Shown here: positions 1-58,680 of the stretch, one piece after another
Layout: each line of letters opens with the position of its first letter
Numbering within the stretch: position 1 is the stretch's first letter
DNA from: a virus
UHGV virus genome: UHGV-0101699
Direction: 5' to 3' (one strand)
Length of the DNA: 64,000 bases
Notes under the pieces: generated by a model
Databases searched by the model: none
Told to the model about the DNA's origin: nothing
What the model saw: the letters and a program-made list of their open reading frames with translations, nothing else
Position numbers and translations under genes: made by a program

Positions 1-1045
1 ACACAAGGCATTCAGTTTGGTCAGGTCAAATCCACCGTCTGTGTCATGAACGATTTTGCAGTAAGCAGAAACAGACTCGCCAAGGCTGTCGATTTTGCTG
101 GTCTCTGAGGTGCTGGCAGTACCCTCCATCATTGAGCCCTTGCGGATGAAGTTGCATACAACACCTTTCGCTCCCATGGACTTCAGGACGTTCTGCAGCT
201 TGATGCCTTCCTCATCGTTTTCGACGACGGCCCGGAAGCGCACGTAATTGCCGCGTATCTGCTTGTCATCCACATCGTCTTCCAGGTTTACGAATTTCGG
301 CGCCGAGGTTTCGAAATGACTGAACGAGCCGTCAGGGTTCACAATCATGTATCCCGCCAGCGAACCTACGTCCCCCCAGTTTTGGTGCGTCAGCGCGCCG
401 ACACTGATAACTCCGGGGATCACCTCCTTGTGGTTGTGGTAATGGCCGGACAGTACCAGGCGAAAGCCTATGTCTTTCAGCTCCTGCGCATCGATGCCAA
501 CATCAGGCATTGTGGGGATAGCTTTGTTGATGGCGGTATGAATCACGACGTCGTGCAGATCCCCGTCAAGCCGCGCACGAAGTGCTTTCAGGTCGCTAAT
601 TAACTCGGCATGGTTGTTTCGCCAGCTCACCATATGGACTGTGACATCACCCAATTTGATGCTGTGTGGCTTACGGCCGCAGACGATCTGTACACCAATC
701 GACTTCAGCGCCGCTGCGGCGTTAGCGCTGTAGACAGAGTCGTTTGTTTCCAGGTCATGGTTGCCGGCCAGCATAGCAACGCTGAGCCCCAGATCTTTGA
801 CGATCCACTCATAGGCATCGGAGACGTAGTTGAGTACGGTAGGGGATACGGTTCCGCGGACGTGGAATGTGTCGCCGGCCACCAGCATGTGGCTGCAGCC
901 CGCTTTTTTCATAGCTATGGCCGCTTCTTTTGTGGCCTCCAGCTGAATGGCTAGCCGAGAATTGAGACCATCTGCATCGGTCGTCGAGAATGAATCCCAT
1001 TTGTGGTAATGGGGATCGGAGATCACCCCATATGGCAACGTCATG
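1..1045 (-). CDS. SbcD/Mre11-like metallophosphoesterase nuclease, 5' part only (continues beyond window start)
   Basis: Manual minus-strand translation from the ATG at 1045 gives MTLPYGVISDPHYHKW...MLVAGDTFH...MLAGNHDLE, the calcineurin-like phosphoesterase motifs (DxH, GDxxD, GNHD) of SbcD/Mre11. The frame has no stop before position 1. Confidence 0.7.
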
Positions 1046-1157
1046 TGTATTTTCCTTTGTGGTTATTTTGATATAGATTATAAGCATGTAAAACAGGCCA
1101 ACAACCAAGTAAACACGGCACATTAGAAAATCTACAGGCTGGATATTATGGCAAAAT

Positions 1158-1801: not shown

Positions 1802-2446
1802 TTAGGGTTCGTCAGAGAGCTTCTGACGCGCATTTGCGATGCTAAAAACTTCTGCTTTTGGCCGAGGGTCGACTAAATCGAGTTCTGCTTCGCTGTGATA
1901 CTCGATATCAAAGTCCCGTTTGATGTGTCTGATGTAAATCGCTGTGAGCAGGCTGTCTTCTTTCAGGAAGTGGCCATAGGATCGGCGGATCACTTCACCT
2001 ACTTTTTCGATCTTCTCTCCGCCCATACAGAGGTGATTGAATCGACTGTGCTTTCTCAGCATTTCATCAACTGGCCCAGAGTAAACCTTATCCACGACAC
2101 CGAATCGAAGGATCTTCGCAGTATCAGCTTCAACCAGGCAGACAATCTTCCCCTCGGTCAATCTGTCACGCCAGGTAACGCCTGAACGCATAGTGTTGAA
2201 GTAGGGGGTATCCAGACCGATGATCGGTTTTCGAAATGCCAGCAGCGGTACGTATCTGGCACAGCTGTTCAGGTGGAAGTTAACGCCGGCGTCACGCAAC
2301 TTGAGTCGGGTCTCGTTGATGTTGCACTTCGAGGCTATGCCACACAGGCTGCAGAGAACCTTCTCGTTGCTCAGTGTGGAGTTTGATTCTATGGTGTAGG
2401 TTCCGTCTTCCAGACGGCGTACCCAACGTGTGCGTTTTAAGTCCAT
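1802..2446 (-). CDS. hypothetical protein
   Basis: 214-aa ORF with no overlap to neighbouring genes. No motif recognised. Confidence 0.5.
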   Translation of the reverse strand: MDLKRTRWVRRLEDGTYTIESNSTLSNEKVLCSLCGIASKCNINETRLKLRDAGVNFHLNSCARYVPLLAFRKPIIGLDTPYFNTMRSGVTWRDRLTEGKIVCLVEADTAKILRFGVVDKVYSGPVDEMLRKHSRFNHLCMGGEKIEKVGEVIRRSYGHFLKEDSLLTAIYIRHIKRDFDIEYHSEAELDLVDPRPKAEVFSIANARQKLSDEP

Positions 2447-2523
2447 GTTCTCGTTTTAGTGATTGTTGACCGGAACCACGATAGCTTACTAGGCACACCT
2501 GTAATCGCAAATGCCTGTTTTAC

Positions 2524-2604
2524 TTATCCACTTATCCACTGGTTAGATCCCAATAATAAGATCCCTATACAGATCCCTATATAGATCCAAAGAGATCCCC
2601 GATC
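2524..2604. promoter_or_regulatory. origin-like region: two tandem DnaA boxes (TTATCCACT x2, 2524..2540) followed by six GATC sites in AGATCCC-type heptamers (2546..2604)
   Basis: Direct reading. Clustered Dam sites plus DnaA boxes immediately upstream of iterons and the rep gene match P1 oriR-type architecture. Confidence 0.65.
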
Positions 2605-2644
2605 GCCGCAGGCCGCGCCACGCCTGGGCTAAGGACTGATCCGT

Positions 2645-2750
2645 GTATGCTGTCAGCGGTAAACGATATGCTGTCAGCGGTACGGTATATGCTGCCAACG
2701 GTTTTGTGTATGCTATCAGCGGTAATTGACGTATGCTGTCAGCGGTTAGA
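2645..2750. repeat. 5 iterons (TATGCTGTCAGCGGT consensus, ~22 bp period) upstream of rep gene (incC-like)
   Basis: Copies at ~2646, 2667, 2687 (variant GCCAACGG), 2709 (variant GCTATCAGC) and 2733. The two-helical-turn spacing is typical of iterons. Confidence 0.8.
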
Positions 2751-4976: not shown

Positions 4977-5220
4977 CAGGCAGTCCAACATAAACAGTAT
5001 TGAAAAGATGAGTAACAGGATATCTATGTATATCTTCATAATAGGTAAATACTAACTTATATATTTTGAGCTGTAAATGGCTACGGAAGAGCGCCAAGGC
5101 CTGGAATTCCCTAAGGATGGCGAGTCCAGAGCCATTCACCATAAGCAGTGGCTAAGCATCACTTTCAGTACTGGCAGATATCCAAACTAATATTCTCATG
5201 TGCTTCTCCTTTGTGGTTTA

Positions 5221-7514: not shown

Positions 7515-7533
7515 GATAAGTAAGTACTTATAT
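7515..7533 (-). promoter_or_regulatory. copy of dispersed box (GATAAGTAAGTACTTATAT)
   Basis: About 30 bp upstream of the 7484 start, just after the recA terminator. Confidence 0.5.
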
Positions 7534-12753: not shown

Positions 12754-13102
12754 TTTGTTATGTATCCGCTTACTAATTTATATCAATAGTACCATGAAGA
12801 AATCAGCTGGTGGAGCATGTGTCGTGAAGATGAGAGGGGGTAGGTTGGGTAGAGACGTTTATGTGGCGACGCTGTGAAAAGGAAAATAAATGTTGCACAA
12901 ACAGAAAGGCCATGCGTTAATGATTGCGTCGGTTTGCAAGACAGACCTTATGAAAGCAGTTTTAGTAAAGCAGTCCGAAGTTCAGGTGTTATCCAAAGAT
13001 TACCCTTCTCCGTGAGTCTCCTCCTAAGTGCCCAAGTAAGTACCAATCTCTCAGACCAATTTCGCCGCGTTGTGTGGCTCTCAAATAATGAAGGTAATCT
13101 CT

Positions 13103-13318
13103 ATGTCTAACAAAATGACTGGTTTAGTAAAATGGTTTAACGCTGATAAAGGCTTCGGTTTTATTACCCCAGCAGACGGCAGCAAAGACGTGTTCGTACA
13201 TTTCTCTGCCATCCAGAGCAACAACTTCCGTACCCTGGAAGAAGGCCAAAAAGTTGAGTTCTCTATTGAGAACGGTGCTAAAGGCCCTGCTGCTTCAAAC
13301 GTAGTTACGTTGAGCTAA
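13103..13318 (+). CDS. cspA: cold-shock protein CspA family
   Basis: [64 protein letters not shown] is near-identical in pattern to E. coli CspA. A long untranslated leader precedes it. Confidence 0.9.
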
Positions 13319-13446
13319 TTTCATTTCGGTAATCTATCCGCTGCGATAACGATGACGGCCTGAGCCTGAGTAGTCAGTTTGGAAGGATTATTGGAAGGAG
13401 TTAAAGGTCGTTAGATCTGGACGGCTTCTCTACTAACTCCATGAGA

Positions 13447-26573: not shown

Positions 26574-27350
26574 TTACAGATAAGCTTGAAGCGCCACTTT
26601 GCATAGCTCAGAGCGCACGCAATCTTCGGCCGTGAACTCAATGAGCCCTACTTGGCGAGATGGCTGGAACCGCTGCAGGGCGTCCTCAAGACCAGATTTA
26701 ACATTACCCGGCAGGTCGCATTGCGTTACATCACCATTCACGATGACTGTTACGTTCTCACCCATCCGAGTTAGGAACATCTTCATTTGTGACGCCGTCA
26801 CGTTCTGGGCCTCATCGAGGATGACCACAGCATTTTCGAACGTGCGACCGCGCATATATGCGAAAGGTGCGATCTCGACTTTGGCCACTTCTGGTTTGAG
26901 GCAGTATTCGAGAAATGAAGCGCCCAGGCGCTTCTGGAGCACATCGTAGACGGGACGAAAGAACGGAGCGAACTTCTCGGCCATATCGCCAGGCAGGAAG
27001 CCCAAATCCTCCTCTGCCTGCAGTACGGGGCGCGTAACGATAATTCGCTCTACTTCCTTATCGAGTAATCGCTGTGCCGCGACTGCCGTCGCCAGGAAGG
27101 TTTTACCGCAGCCGGCTTCGCCAGTGGCGAACGTCAGTGCTTTGCTATCAAGGGAGATAAGATAGTGGGCCTGGGCCTCATTGCGTGCCTCTATGGGGGA
27201 AGTGTCACGCTTCGGTTTTGGGGGCAGAGCAGGGGCGGCGGTGGCCAGCTCGTCTACGATAATAGTGTCGATCTCGTATCCGAGAATACGCGATTTTGAC
27301 TTAAGCGCCTGGCGAGCTGCACGTCGCGCCTGTTTACGTTTGTTTCCCAT
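26574..27350 (-). CDS. phoH: PhoH-like ATPase
   Basis: Walker A GEAGCGKTFLA. Start reassigned to MGNKRKQ, preceded by AAAGGA. Confidence 0.8.
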   Translation of the reverse strand: MGNKRKQARRAARQALKSKSRILGYEIDTIIVDELATAAPALPPKPKRDTSPIEARNEAQAHYLISLDSKALTFATGEAGCGKTFLATAVAAQRLLDKEVERIIVTRPVLQAEEDLGFLPGDMAEKFAPFFRPVYDVLQKRLGASFLEYCLKPEVAKVEIAPFAYMRGRTFENAVVILDEAQNVTASQMKMFLTRMGENVTVIVNGDVTQCDLPGNVKSGLEDALQRFQPSRQVGLIEFTAEDCVRSELCKVALQAYL

Positions 27351-27404
27351 ATTGAGTCCTTTCAAGTGAGTAACCAGACGAACTATACCTAAAAGAGAAC
27401 GCAA

Positions 27405-27427
27405 AAGTAAGTAAGTAGTTACATAAC
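27405..27427 (-). promoter_or_regulatory. copy of dispersed box (AAGTAAGTAAGTAGTTACATAAC) upstream of phoH
   Basis: Lies between the phoH start and the tRNA-Ser gene. Confidence 0.45.
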
Positions 27428-27622
27428 AACAAGAGCGCTTATGCAAGAAAAGGGGCCGAAGCCCCTTTGGATTTTGCGCTGAAAAAGTGTTGCTAAGATG
27501 CTAGAAGCTATGGTTAAAGAACGTCTGCCGTAATGTCTATCACAGCGTTGAGCGGTCTGGCCATGGTGACAGGCGGAGTCTTTTCGATAAGAAAAACAAA
27601 ACCAAACCGCTCAACGCTGTGT

Positions 27623-27710
27623 TGGCGGAGGATAATGGAATCGAACCATCATCGCTTTCGCAATGGGACGGTTTTCAAGACCGCTTGGGCGCCATGCCCT
27701 CTATCCTCCG
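27623..27710 (-). tRNA. tRNA-Ser (anticodon UGA), long variable arm, CCA encoded
   Basis: Folded by hand: 7-bp acceptor CGGAGGA/TCCTCCG, T-arm GGTTCGATTCC, anticodon loop CUUGAAA. Confidence 0.75.
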
Positions 27711-27856
27711 TTCGTTGTGACGCCAGATGCTTATCTTCTGGTTGCTTCAACGAGCTGCAATTCATCACAACGGTAAGGGCATTCAGGGAATCAGATCCGT
27801 CGCGAACAGCCAAAGAGCGCGCCTTCCTTGCTGTCGTCCAAATACCCTTACCGTTG

Positions 27857-27931
27857 TGGCGATGGTGGGTGGATTCGAACCACCGACCAGTTGATTAACA
27901 GTCAACCGCTCTACCACTGAGCTACACCATC
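27857..27931 (-). tRNA. tRNA-Asn (anticodon GUU), CCA encoded
   Basis: GATGGTGTAGCTCAGTGGTAGAGC...CTGTTAATC...GGTTCGAATCCACCCACCATCGCCA. Its acceptor stem differs from that of the host asn tRNA, so it is the phage's own tRNA. Confidence 0.8.
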
Positions 27932-28668
27932 TAAGGTTGACACCGTCAGCCTCTGTCGATTCACGGACTTGTGGGGCTGTATCGCCGATTCACCGGTGTC
28001 GTTCGCAGCAGTCCTACCGCTTTCTGCCACTTGTGCTTTACGTATTCACCAAACGCTTACAAGCCAAGATCTTCAAATACTCTCCGAGGGTTGAGGAGGG
28101 CTTTCTTTCAGATCTAATTGGATGTATGGAATCATTTAATCGTTGTGGCCACGGGGCAGTGACAACAATGGCTATAACCAGAAGGATAATGAATCCGTGA
28201 CCACAACGTTGAGACCACTGGACGGATTAATGTACTTGGCCCTACATGTCTGCCGGTTCTGCCTCTGTGATGCAAAAACCAGTGGTCTCAACGTTGCGTG
28301 CTGGCTCACCTAACCAGCCGGGTTACGTCGCCATTTTTAACCCAAAACTAAACGACATAAGTAACAGAAATGACGTAACAGGATAGACGGTCGGGCCTTT
28401 GGGAGCCGGGATGTGTTGGACATAAAACCCAACCGCCCATTCTGTTACCTCATCGGTAAGGGCACTGGTTAACCAGATGCCCTACCTGCGTTTTGCAATC
28501 ACACTCGCTTAGTGTGTCCCATTTCGGTGACGAGGCTGGAAACTGACCTCGCTGGTGTTTAGCTTTTTAGGCTACTGCCAGGTACTGATTGTCGTTTGCA
28601 GTTATCTTTAAACGTTCAAACAGTCGCGTTTCAACGAAAACAAGCCAATCATAGTTGTATCAATTTAA

Positions 28669-28684
28669 TAAGTAAATACTTACC
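28669..28684 (-). promoter_or_regulatory. copy of dispersed box (TAAGTAAATACTTACC) upstream of the ORF-free structured region and tRNA genes
   Basis: It is the only candidate promoter element reading into 27.9..28.65 kb on the minus strand. Confidence 0.4.
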
Positions 28685-28860
28685 TATTATTTCATACGTC
28701 AGTTTGATCATTTTTTGATCAGTACTGGCTTCTCATCCTGCGTCCGTTGGATTGTGGCCGTTAAACGTTTGACTCTGATCAATCGCACTTTCTTAGATCT
28801 GTAGCAGTCACCTGTTCTACGTTGTTAATACATTTTGTCGTCTATGAACGTATAAGTGAT

Positions 28861-29277
28861 TCACACAATTTTACTTATCCATCCTTCGATAACATCATAG
28901 GCCACATAGCTTTTCGCGATAACAGTTGTCGCTATTACAAAGAACCATTTATGCTTTCCCACAAATCTTTTCACCTTTTCATATTTACTCAGTGATCCCT
29001 CGTAATACTCAATCAGAGTAATCCACTGCTGAATTTGCTCTTTATAATGATTACAAAGATTTTTATTTATTTGGGCTTGCTGCAACGACCGACTCCTAGA
29101 CAACCAACCACCAGTAACTGGTGGCTTAATTTCAGGCAGTTCAGTATCAAATTTAGTACGTTGTTGGTTAAGCCGATCAACAACAACACGAAGTTCATCT
29201 GCGGTGAGATCATTACGAGCATAAATATCTTTCAGTTGAGCTAGTGTCATATGAAGCACTCTTTTGGTTGATGACAT
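28861..29277 (-). CDS. hypothetical protein with C-terminal TM helix (138 aa), AT-rich gene
   Basis: WFFVIATTVIAKSYVAY is a C-terminal hydrophobic helix. GC is low compared with the flanks. Confidence 0.45.
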   Translation of the reverse strand: MSSTKRVLHMTLAQLKDIYARNDLTADELRVVVDRLNQQRTKFDTELPEIKPPVTGGWLSRSRSLQQAQINKNLCNHYKEQIQQWITLIEYYEGSLSKYEKVKRFVGKHKWFFVIATTVIAKSYVAYDVIEGWISKIV

Positions 29278-32439: not shown

Positions 32440-32460
32440 ATGTAAGTAGCTACTTATCAA
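32440..32460. promoter_or_regulatory. palindromic variant (ATGTAAGTAGCTACTTATCAA) in divergent region
   Basis: TAAGTAGCTACTTA is a perfect palindrome. Confidence 0.45.
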
Positions 32461-37302: not shown

Positions 37303-37324
37303 ATAGGTAACTACTTACTTAACA
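37303..37324. promoter_or_regulatory. copy of dispersed box (GATAGGTAACTACTTACTTAAC) in divergent region
   Basis: Upstream of the 36567..37292 gene. Divergent from the 37571 gene. Confidence 0.45.
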
Positions 37325-42804: not shown

Positions 42805-42824
42805 GTAGGTAAGTACTTACATAC
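42805..42824 (-). promoter_or_regulatory. copy of dispersed box (GTAGGTAAGTACTTACATAC) upstream of lysis cassette
   Basis: On the coding strand GTAAGTACTTACC is followed by TACAAT, the same arrangement as at 22508. Confidence 0.55.
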
Positions 42825-58659: not shown

Positions 58660-58680
58660 TAGATAAGTACTTACTTATCT
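58660..58680 (-). promoter_or_regulatory. copy of dispersed box (AGATAAGTACTTACTTATCTA) between gpM and gpL genes
   Basis: Extended palindrome AGATAAGTA/TACTTATCT. Followed on the coding strand by TATTAT, then a GTCACA..TGTGAC hairpin before the ATG. Confidence 0.5.

Follow-up and report, generated by a model that had tools for sequence, protein, structure and literature searches.

We analyzed a 64,000-nucleotide (nt) stretch of the virus genome UHGV-0101699 (hereafter, the window), which is an SSU5-like phage-plasmid as judged from its best DNA matches. The region studied here, around positions 27400 to 28900, is flanked on both sides by minus-strand genes (phoH-like and ligase). It is 97-99% identical to the Klebsiella phage-plasmids vB_Kpn_1825-KPC53 and pJN2-26 and 75-85% identical to Salmonella phage SSU5 and Escherichia phage Cyrano, and its gene order is common to the window, pJN2-26, SSU5 and Cyrano. 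A first-pass annotation had described it as a pair of tRNA genes among large perfect hairpins in DNA with no credible open reading frame (ORF), and had proposed a processed polycistronic precursor of tRNAs and other non-coding RNAs, decayed tRNA genes, a structured RNA or a recombination site, with non-functional spacer as the opposite possibility. We found that the region contains conserved RNA elements that all point the same way and are bounded by a promoter overlapping an operator and by a terminator-like hairpin (Table 1). The elements are an RNA of ~340 nt that, to judge from its sequence, descends from transfer-messenger RNA (tmRNA, or SsrA) and has lost the tRNA-like domain, the genes for tRNA-Asn(GUU) and tRNA-Ser(UGA), and long hairpin stems. 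We consider it probable that this "spacer" is a single repressor-controlled RNA operon on the minus strand, which comprises the tmRNA-derived RNA, the tRNAs and the RNA stems. The first-pass annotation had missed the strand and the tmRNA-like tag frame with its pseudoknots, and had not recognized all the hairpins as members of a family common to many unrelated phages.

Table 1. Features of the RNA-encoding region of the window, listed from the promoter to the terminator-like hairpin
Feature	Positions	Strand	Remarks
Operator-like palindrome TAAGTAtttTACTTA	28669-28682		Exact palindrome; overlaps the -35 box
Predicted sigma-70-type promoter	28648-28676	-	-35 TTTACT, 17-nt spacer, -10 TATGAT (28653-28648); predicted start ~28641
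5'-terminal conserved motif GUUUUCGU	28634-28641	-	Present in every lineage
Putative tmRNA-derived RNA (mRNA-like domain and pseudoknots)	28300-28641	-	~340 nt; from homology, sub-threshold Rfam matches and conservation
Tag frame	28567-28599	-	GCA AAC GAC AAT CAG TAC CTG GCA GTA GCC TAA, ANDNQYLAVA then stop
Helix 5-like hairpin	28552-28581	-	Stop codon in loop; 95-96% of cells paired in 39 distinct sequences
Pseudoknot A	28521-28552	-	Stem 1 GCGAGGU/GCCUCGU; stem 2 GUUUC/GAAAU
Pseudoknot B	28488-28516	-	Stem 1 CACACU/AGUGUG; stem 2 GCG/CGC
Internal hairpin AGGUAGGGCAUCUGG-UUAA-CCAGUGCCCUUACC	~28455-28487	-	-20 kcal/mol, z = -4.4
Long imperfect hairpin	28367-28453	-	-42.4 kcal/mol, z = -5.2
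Terminal stem-loop GCUGG-UUAGGUGAG-CCAGC, then ACG	28300-28318	-	
Hairpin I2	28204-28221/28279-28296 (RNA 28202-28298)	-	18-nt arms, 100% complementary; 57-nt loop; 20 base pairs (bp) with G.U
Hairpin I8	28141-28154/28195-28208	-	14-bp stem adjoining I2; -28.5 kcal/mol, z = -5.0
tRNA-Asn(GUU)	27857-27931	-	ARAGORN; Rfam tRNA 77.5 bits; CCA encoded
Hairpin I4	27766-27783/27841-27858	-	18-nt arms, 94% complementary; 21-bp RNA stem from the tRNA-Asn CCA
tRNA-Ser(UGA)	27623-27709	-	ARAGORN only; CCA encoded
Hairpin I1	27541-27560/27602-27621	-	20-nt arms, 95% complementary; 22-bp RNA stem; -45.1 kcal/mol, z = -7.7
Intrinsic-terminator-like hairpin AAGGGGC-UUCG-GCCCCUU, then UUCUU	27446-27472	-	Read from the sequence; fold -16.1 kcal/mol

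In a minus-strand alignment of the window with pJN2-26, SSU5 and Cyrano, positions 28430-28640 form a near-invariant block, and the core of the RNA is 93% identical to that of SSU5/Cyrano, whereas the adjoining ligase gene is only 77-79% identical. Inside the block lies a frame that begins at the resume codon GCA without a start codon and runs to an in-frame stop, as tmRNA tags do; for comparison, the E. coli SsrA tag is ANDENYALAA with a double stop. The corresponding tags elsewhere read ANDNTFLAVA (Vi01), ANEEMYLAVA (DP01), ANDEQFLAVA, ANDDLMMVAA (P1 and D6), ANDNVFLAVA with a double stop (Felix O1 and Moogle), ANDAQFLAVA with a double stop (SunLIRen) and ANDDVVLMAA (FSL SP-058). The Felix O1, SunLIRen and FSL SP-058 copies, which were found by BLAST, thus also retain the frame, and the tag changes in SunLIRen are synonymous (AAU, GUG and GCG). 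To guard against ascertainment bias, we retrieved elements by the pattern of the first pseudoknot, independently of the tag, and removed nine unrelated chance matches. All 39 distinct elements obtained in this way have the open 10-codon frame followed by a stop. Differences in the tag are about twice as frequent at the third codon position as at positions 1 and 2, in a count made without correction for phylogeny. Meanwhile, an alternative frame (MQT...WQ, then stop) that we considered as a small gene has no Pfam match and is not conserved, and the window lacks its AUG.

The helices around and after the tag covary between lineages. Stem 1 of pseudoknot A exists in the compensatory variants GUGAGG/CCUCAU, GCAAGG/CCUUGU and ACGGGG/CCCCGU, and stem 2 in the variants CCGA/UCGG, CCAG/CUGG, CCAA/UUGG and GUCG/CGAC. 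In pseudoknot B, stem 1 is 100% paired with CG/GC/UA exchanges, and stem 2 varies as GCCC/GGGC, GCCCUGA/UCAGGGC, UCCCCG/CGGGGA and GACGGGAG/CUCCCGUC. Taken together, helix 5 and the two pseudoknots contain 25 pairs, of which 90.5% of cells are paired in a 40-sequence alignment, compared with 35-45% when the partners are slid. Two-sided changes occur in 12 of these pairs (96 cells), and none of 500 shuffles reached the covariation score. The 3' part of the RNA is more variable. The internal hairpin is a short member of the hairpin family described below, and at its position other lineages have a long hairpin, CACAAC-AGGUAAGAGCAUUG...CAGUGCUCUUUCC-GUUGUG, with a variable loop. The long imperfect hairpin has conserved flanks and a variable tip in SSU5/Cyrano. 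The 5-bp stem of the terminal stem-loop also covaries (CUGG/CCAG, CUGA/UCAG, GCCGG/CCGGC and GCAGG/CCUGC) and is followed in most lineages by C-ACCA, while the copy in the window has a 9-nt loop without a T-loop motif and ACG instead of ACCA. The unit can be shorter; in Moogle it spans ~225 nt from the promoter to the next tRNA.

Similarity to E. coli ssrA is significant for the tag and helix 5 only (z = 3.4). In Rfam searches, the tmRNA families remain below the gathering score (best 13-22 bits vs 47-84 required) and yet stand out among the sub-threshold matches, with E = 0.005 for alpha_tmRNA, 0.0014 for beta_tmRNA and 0.04 for tmRNA_permuted; the remaining sub-threshold matches are weak ones of hairpins to microRNA and snoRNA models. 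No DicF, Y RNA, GOLLD/ROOL, ribozyme or riboswitch was found in the window, either at the gathering score or at E <= 10.

The element is not restricted to the SSU5-like phages. A sensitive BLAST search with the conserved block matched more than 400 phage genomes, in unannotated DNA, and a more central query matched 775 of 50,697 phage records. Carriers include Kuttervirus (Vi01), Felixounavirus and other Ounavirinae including Erwinia phages, Schitoviridae (FSL SP-058), Klebsiella phages of 46-60 kb, and P1-like and SSU5-like phages; E. coli plasmids contributed 256 matching places, in 258 of 5,426 complete genomes. At every opened locus with tRNAs nearby, the element lies in or beside the tRNA array, and in about half of the lineages the tRNA genes are on its strand. 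In Felix O1, SunLIRen, Moogle and FSL SP-058, it lies inside a tRNA array or ends one. For FSL SP-058 (297-969), GenBank lists four tRNA genes, one of them inside a coding sequence, and ARAGORN with default settings finds none. The copies of P1 and D6 lie just downstream of an annotated 'dicF-like region'. In P1, the 'plp' lipoprotein ORF (2293-2670, plus strand) is antisense to tRNA-Thr and to a conserved hairpin bearing a T-arm that follows it (~2565-2640, minus strand), and may be a mis-annotation.

In the tmRNA-like RNA of the window we found no acceptor stem, G3:U70 pair, D-loop, canonical T-arm or CCA, and a separate acceptor piece (T-arm, 3' acceptor strand and CCA) was not found within 27400-28900. 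ARAGORN with default settings reported no tmRNA in the window, P1, SSU5, Cyrano, Vi01, DP01 or the Felix O1 locus. With lowered thresholds it recovered the tags, but these were swamped by false tRNA and tmRNA calls, so that the program is useless for finding a tRNA-like domain here. The 5' end agrees with this loss. DP01, Moogle, SunLIRen and Felix O1 have their own promoters 0-13 nt ahead of the 5' motif, the distance being 7-13 nt in the first three, and in the window the predicted start is the G of GUUUUCGU, 0-1 nt before the motif. Since the start lies at or just before the motif, no 5' acceptor strand would be transcribed. Several candidate remnants were rejected. In global and local alignments of each segment with E. 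coli ssrA, the 3' arm of I2 and positions 28395-28440, which look strikingly like the ssrA 3' end, score z <= 0.4, and this likeness is not conserved in SSU5/Cyrano. An acceptor helix between AGUGCUC in the 5' flank and CAGCACC at the 3' end has 5-6 bp in some groups, but its 5' strand is absent from the promoter-led copies, including the window. A circularly permuted arrangement was dismissed as well, the T-arm hairpins having normal tRNA topology. These T-arm hairpins are a separate observation. Some hairpins of the family (~1040-1130, minus strand, in locus L035; L018; L066; and the P1 T-arm hairpin mentioned above) enclose a mini-tRNA built from three parts: a 7-bp acceptor-like stem, lengthened by pairing of leader and trailer; the small hairpin GGCGA-CGUCGGAGA-UCGCC; and a canonical T-arm with the sequence GGGUUCGAAUCCC or, covarying between lineages, AUGGGUUCGAGUCCCAU. 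The mini-tRNAs have neither an anticodon arm nor CCA and resemble a "tRNA-like-domain-only" molecule.

The hairpins between the RNAs, except I8, had been noticed in the first-pass annotation as DNA repeats, and each of those noticed proved to be part of a longer RNA stem. The 15-bp perfect stem next to the CCA of tRNA-Ser is the core of I1, the 18-bp perfect stem with a ~57-nt loop is I2, and the 13-bp inverted repeat between the tRNAs is the core of I4; the third copy of GGTAAGGGC is at 28455-28463, where it forms one arm of the internal hairpin. The CGTTGAG core that these repeats were said to share is present, but as a stand-alone dispersed motif it is enriched only about 2-fold (18 occurrences vs 9.5 expected in the window), and the meaningful unit is the 12-nt arm terminus CACARCGKTRAG. 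This terminus occurs at six arms of I1, I2 and I4, five times exactly and once with one mismatch. Elsewhere in the 64 kb we found no exact copies and four matches with one mismatch, compared with ~2 expected. On folding, all four stems (I1, I2, I4 and I8) are far more stable than shuffled sequences (0 of 200 shuffles as stable), the z-scores of I2 and I4 being -6.2/-6.3.

All four stems are 3-11 kcal/mol more stable as minus-strand RNA, for example -46.2 vs -41.5 kcal/mol for I2 and -47.1 vs -35.8 kcal/mol for I4. In 13 sequences, I2 is 98.4% paired; three pairs are changed on both sides, and the one-sided changes yield G.U in the minus sense in all 10 cells. The same bias is found among 46 distinct long stems, which contain 61 G.U and 24 A.C positions. 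Because wobble pairs, covariation and stability all favor the minus strand, the stems appear to function as RNA on the strand of the tRNAs. Together with the internal hairpin, I1, I2, I4 and I8 form one family (CACAAC...GUUGUG), which is present throughout these phage RNA clusters with stems of 12-24 bp, loops from 4 to more than 180 nt, and two arm types, GGUAAGRGCAUU.../...AGUGCUCUUACC and CACARCGUUGAG.../...CUCAACGYUGUG. The stems begin 0-10 nt past tRNA-like 3' ends, as at the junctions CCA|CAACGG of tRNA-Asn and CCA-A|CACAGCG of tRNA-Ser (where I1 starts 1 nt past the CCA), after tRNA-Thr in P1, and at the end of the tmRNA-like RNA leading into I2. The type of hairpin tracks the tRNA: the GGUAAGGGC type follows tRNA-Thr and tRNA-Asn, and the CGUUGAGCGG type follows tRNA-Ser. 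In Cyrano and in IMG/VR relatives, tRNA-Ser is again followed by the I1 hairpin, in CGUUGAGCGG/CGCUGAACGG variants. The homologue of I4 in P1 and D6 is the hairpin that follows tRNA-Thr; its T-arm (GGGUUCGAAUCCC) is degenerate in I4. None of I1, I2 and I4 is an intrinsic terminator, as no U-tract follows the 3' arm. Measured against the ~20-bp, mostly Watson-Crick duplex expected of an RNase III site, the minimum-free-energy folds give 22, 21, 20 and 14 bp. Since the three longest stems correspond to about two helical turns, we propose RNase III as the nuclease, and the stems are probably RNase III-type processing stalks.

The promoter is the sole promoter-like site that a consensus scan found in 27300-29000. 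The copy of the dispersed box that the first-pass annotation had seen pointing into the region at 28669 is the palindrome over its -35 box, and the box and its position are kept in pJN2-26, SSU5 and Cyrano. With up to two mismatches, the palindrome TAAGTAnnTACTTA has 20 strand-matches (~13 sites) in the window, compared with 0.29 expected. The sites include 1161-1178, 5042-5055, 7517-7530, 27408-27425, 28669-28682, 32443-32456, 37304-37321, 42806-42823 and 58664-58677, and one copy lies ahead of the phoH-like gene just downstream of the RNA region. The palindrome looks like the operator of the phage repressor. In the proposed operon, transcription would start at ~28641 under the control of this operator and end near 27450. 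The transcript would carry, in order, the ~340-nt tmRNA-derived RNA, the 20-bp and 14-bp stems, tRNA-Asn, the 21-bp stem, tRNA-Ser, and the 22-bp stem before the terminator. It would be repressed in the plasmid prophage and expressed on induction. Cutting of the stems would then release the tmRNA-like RNA, the tRNAs and the loop segments as separate pieces and give exonucleases access to the CCA ends. Direct support exists for the parts themselves and for how well they are conserved, for the covarying helices, for a coding-type constraint on the tag and for the strand that the stems use. Of the initial proposals, the processed polycistronic precursor and the structured RNA are supported by the conserved core and the covarying helices.

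The 5' end of the tmRNA-like RNA points to a possible function. In an exact-match scan, GUUUUCGU of the window was complementary to nt 97-104 of E. coli ssrA (8 nt), and in other lineages the motif (UA)GUUUUCGU(C) reaches 9-12 complementary nt within ssrA nt 96-108 (GACGAAAACUACG), which contain the tag codons D-E-N-Y. The motif is carried by the window and by loci L006, L007, L129, L130, L131 (FSL SP-058), L132 (Moogle) and L003 (P1), and the lineages extend the complementarity on different sides. Every lineage shows the complementarity except locus L070, which has a single U-for-G in the motif. Of the trials with a shuffled motif, 0.5% reach at least 9 nt in the ssrA tag region. The phage's own tag encodes similar residues with other nucleotides at exactly these codons, and the motif does not pair with it. 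When whole phage RNAs were paired with host ssrA by RNAduplex, the full-length duplexes were no better than those of shuffles. The complementarity of the 5' end suggests that the tmRNA-like RNA meets host tmRNA directly. Because the tag still seems to be selected as a template and the 5' end is complementary to the host tag codons, we think it most likely that the RNA interferes with host SsrA tagging, or diverts it, while the phage grows, and does not work alone as a tmRNA. Function is the weakest step of our interpretation, and the RNA may instead be part of a split tmRNA, a protein decoy or have another role. A more specific version, which we regard as rather unlikely, is a "tag-swap" or anti-tmRNA device, in which the 5' seed (UA)GUUUUCGU(C) docks on the D-E-N-Y codons of host tmRNA. 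If so, docking would block host SsrA tagging, or the ribosome would read ...LAVA, a poor ClpX signal, in place of ...ALAA, and rescued proteins would escape degradation during phage growth.

Several points weigh against the operon and the function just proposed. The promoter, the co-transcription, the RNA ends and the cleavage are all predictions, and the consensus scan missed the terminator-like hairpin. RNase III has no strict sequence requirement, which leaves the conserved arm sequences unexplained. The ~210 nt between I8 and tRNA-Asn (27932-28140, minus strand), which are conserved in the closest relatives only and partly replaced in SSU5/Cyrano, are not accounted for by the operon. The third-position excess in the tag lacks the phylogenetic correction noted above. 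The complementarity to ssrA was noticed post hoc and is just 8 nt in the window; the 5' motif is homologous to tmRNA nt 14-21 and could be conserved for another reason; and some lineages have a possible intramolecular partner for it, CGAAAA. Finally, known trans-translation offers no way of decoding the tag of an RNA that lacks a tRNA-like domain, which sits uneasily with selection of the tag as a template.

Alternatively, the hairpins might be DNA-level elements, such as miniature mobile palindromes, or recombination sites that target tRNA 3' ends and exchange tRNA modules among phages, with RNA structure being incidental. This would account for arm termini conserved beyond what pairing alone requires, for loops of such different lengths with unrelated content, and for the rearrangement of tRNA modules between the window, Cyrano, P1 and D6, including the loss of tRNA-Thr from the window exactly at a hairpin boundary. 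The modular rearrangements likewise fit the recombination site initially proposed. However, read on the strand of the tRNAs the one-sided changes make G.U pairs, and these would become A.C mismatches if the other strand or a DNA cruciform were the folded form; within the 64 kb, family members occur nowhere but in the RNA operon, with no exact CACARCGKTRAG outside; each hairpin type stays with its own tRNA; and neither a transposase nor a target-site duplication was seen. We therefore disfavor a recombination site and regard a DNA-level role as a rather improbable explanation of the family. A role of the stems as uncut RNA, either as 3' stabilizers against exonucleases after the tRNAs or as attenuators setting the ratio of upstream to downstream RNA, is harder to separate from processing, since it fits most of the data and differs solely in whether the stems are cut. 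Their start directly at CCA ends, their high stability (-28 to -47 kcal/mol) and the U-runs after the 5' arms of I1 and I2 on the minus strand agree with it, yet a stable stem right after the CCA would block exonucleolytic trimming unless it is cut, the U-tract expected after the 3' arms is absent, the region has downstream tRNAs and a separate terminator, and 20-22 bp are what double-strand-specific nucleases generally act on. Uncut stems thus seem unlikely to us, and we retain processing stalks as the preferred reading.

The loss of the tRNA-like domain raises two further possibilities for the tmRNA-like RNA. It could be a dead relic of a captured host ssrA, with the rest of the region as spacer hitch-hiking with the tRNA genes; besides the missing domain, the limited similarity to E. 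coli ssrA and the scores below the Rfam gathering and ARAGORN thresholds would be expected of such a relic. Conservation and covariation contradict it. The core outconserves the neighboring protein genes, compensatory changes run across five helices, the frame is intact in every independent retrieval and in distant families, and the element is kept in at least six unrelated phage groups, so that a relic is strongly disfavored and can hardly be correct; the same evidence refutes non-functional spacer. Decay fits in a limited sense only, in that the window has a hairpin between its tRNAs where relatives have tRNA-Thr and a T-arm-bearing hairpin. Conversely, the element could be one half of a complete two-piece tmRNA whose tRNA-like half comes from a hairpin and is assembled by pairing of shared arms. 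In P1, L018, L035 and L066, a family hairpin enclosing a mini-tRNA is found either immediately upstream of the tag RNA or past tRNA-Thr, the permuted beta_tmRNA model of Rfam aligns end to end across a mini-tRNA locus (E = 0.0014), and the arms of the mini-tRNA hairpin are nearly identical to those of the internal hairpin in the tag RNA, which makes strand exchange possible. In the window, by contrast, the T-arm in I4 is degenerate and the loops of I1 and I2 lack one, and no mini-tRNA hairpin adjoins the promoter-led copies of DP01, Moogle, Felix O1 and SunLIRen. G3:U70 and an encoded CCA are absent from all the mini-tRNAs, whose topology matches a normal closed tRNA and not a permuted acceptor piece, and ARAGORN with default settings reports no tmRNA in the loci that were run. 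A complete two-piece tmRNA fits some lineages and not the window, and we consider it very improbable; a tmRNA-derived RNA that has lost the tRNA-like domain remains our preferred reading.

The two tRNA genes with encoded CCA were confirmed by ARAGORN and by the sequence, on the minus strand, which the first-pass annotation had not stated. tRNA-Ser(UGA), with a long variable arm and a short D-loop, is below the Rfam gathering score (best clan match tRNA-Sec, 44.1 bits, cut-off 47), and its homologue in the GenBank record of D6 was given no amino acid by tRNAscan-SE. Comparison with relatives, which the first-pass annotation had suggested as a way to look for additional tRNAs, showed that the slot between the two tRNAs holds tRNA-Thr there, and that the tRNA sets are modular: Cyrano has Asn-Thr-Ser packed and then a hairpin, P1 has Asn-Thr-hairpin, D6 has Asn-Thr-hairpin...hairpin-Ser, and the window has Asn-hairpin-Ser-hairpin. 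The absence of a credible ORF from 27932-28860 was also upheld: the longest there is 87 amino acids or less, and no Pfam match was obtained for the five ORFs tested (four within this interval and one of 121 amino acids across the tRNA genes). Elsewhere in the window, positions 12928-13351 (plus strand) give a full-length Rfam match to the cspA thermoregulator 5'UTR (RF01766, 188.6 bits, E = 4e-50), so that the phage-plasmid apparently carries a cold-shock-type gene with an RNA thermosensor.

To our knowledge, tmRNA has been regarded as an indivisible hybrid of tRNA and mRNA. Here, the mRNA half alone is kept under selection, with its tag frame intact, in ~1.5% of sequenced phages. Major enterobacterial pathogens are among their hosts, and phage-plasmid copies are present in ~5% of complete E. 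coli genomes. Standard annotation is blind to the element, as ARAGORN and Rfam both miss the copy in the window. If the RNA still feeds or blocks trans-translation, it would be an unrecognized phage handle on ribosome rescue and SsrA-directed proteolysis. The hairpin family suggests how phage tRNA arrays might be divided into units, a model that can be tested, and a covariance model would annotate hundreds of "empty" regions in therapeutic phages (Kuttervirus, Felix O1-like and Klebsiella phages).

RNase III stalks are known from the stems of rRNA operons, from intervening sequences in 23S rRNA and from the early mRNA sites of phage T7. The stems of the window resemble these in that they are near-perfect, span about two helical turns, have variable loops and lie between functional RNAs of one precursor; they differ in that their arm sequences are conserved as a family across phages, and their cleavage is only predicted. 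Conserved non-coding RNAs in phage tRNA clusters include GOLLD, ROOL and the T4 species 1 and 2 RNAs, which are embedded in their clusters as the window RNA is in its own, but have no sequence or Rfam relation to it, its ancestry being in tmRNA. The closest parallel for the arrangement is the leader of the P1 ban operon, where the C1-controlled promoter Pban drives a DicF-like RNA, the P1 copy of the element and the tRNAs (trnA and trnT). Both this leader and the window combine a repressor-controlled promoter with non-coding RNAs, tRNA-Asn and a family hairpin, and by analogy the operator-promoter of the window parallels the C1 operator on Pban. The annotation of the P1 leader names the DicF-like segment only, whereas the window has no DicF match in Rfam.

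Compared with tmRNA itself (SsrA; RF00023 and its clan), the phage RNA shares the GCA resume codon after an A-rich stretch, a 10-codon tag that begins with AND and has a small hydrophobic tail, a stop in the loop of helix 5 (double in the Felix O1-like and SunLIRen copies) and covarying H-type pseudoknots after the tag, and its 5' segment UUUUCG...GCGACUUUGCGG resembles ssrA nt 14-33. It differs in that it starts from a promoter located a few nt ahead of the 5' motif, and in having tags that end in LAVA, MVAA or LMAA and not ALAA. In the two-piece tmRNAs of alpha- and betaproteobacteria and cyanobacteria, the coding part is likewise a separate piece; these families give the best sub-threshold Rfam matches, and around the tag, the betaproteobacterial two-piece consensus (AUAAAUGCcAAcGAUGAgcauUUC) very closely resembles the phage sequence. 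Their coding piece, however, opens with the 5' acceptor strand and pairs with a piece carrying the T-arm and CCA, neither of which is found in the window.

In the literature, we found no description of the RNA structure or of the missing tRNA half, nor of the spread to P1-like, SSU5-like, Kuttervirus and Schitoviridae phages, and a Kuttervirus genome announcement reports zero tmRNAs. The element is widespread and essentially unannotated, its sole forerunners being bare ARAGORN "ssrA" calls in Felix O1-like phages, namely one-line statements in the announcements of Moogle and Felix O1 (PMC4319497, PMC4392139). When we reran ARAGORN on Moogle, it returned a 749-nt permuted 'tmRNA*' (1386-2134) across three genuine tRNA genes (Lys, Met and Ile), in which the tag alone is correct, and this tag belongs to the same family as that of the window. 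The published ssrA statements for Moogle and Felix O1 thus rest on an ARAGORN artefact. A 2014 census of tmRNAs limits the phage cases to mycobacteriophages and Bacillus phage G, with none from enterobacterial phages; they comprise complete ssrA genes of the Bxz1 type, DS6A with a "tRNA-like domain only", and Bacillus phage G (PMC4131195). DS6A is thus the mirror image of the window, as it has the tRNA-like domain only, whereas the window has the mRNA-like domain only.

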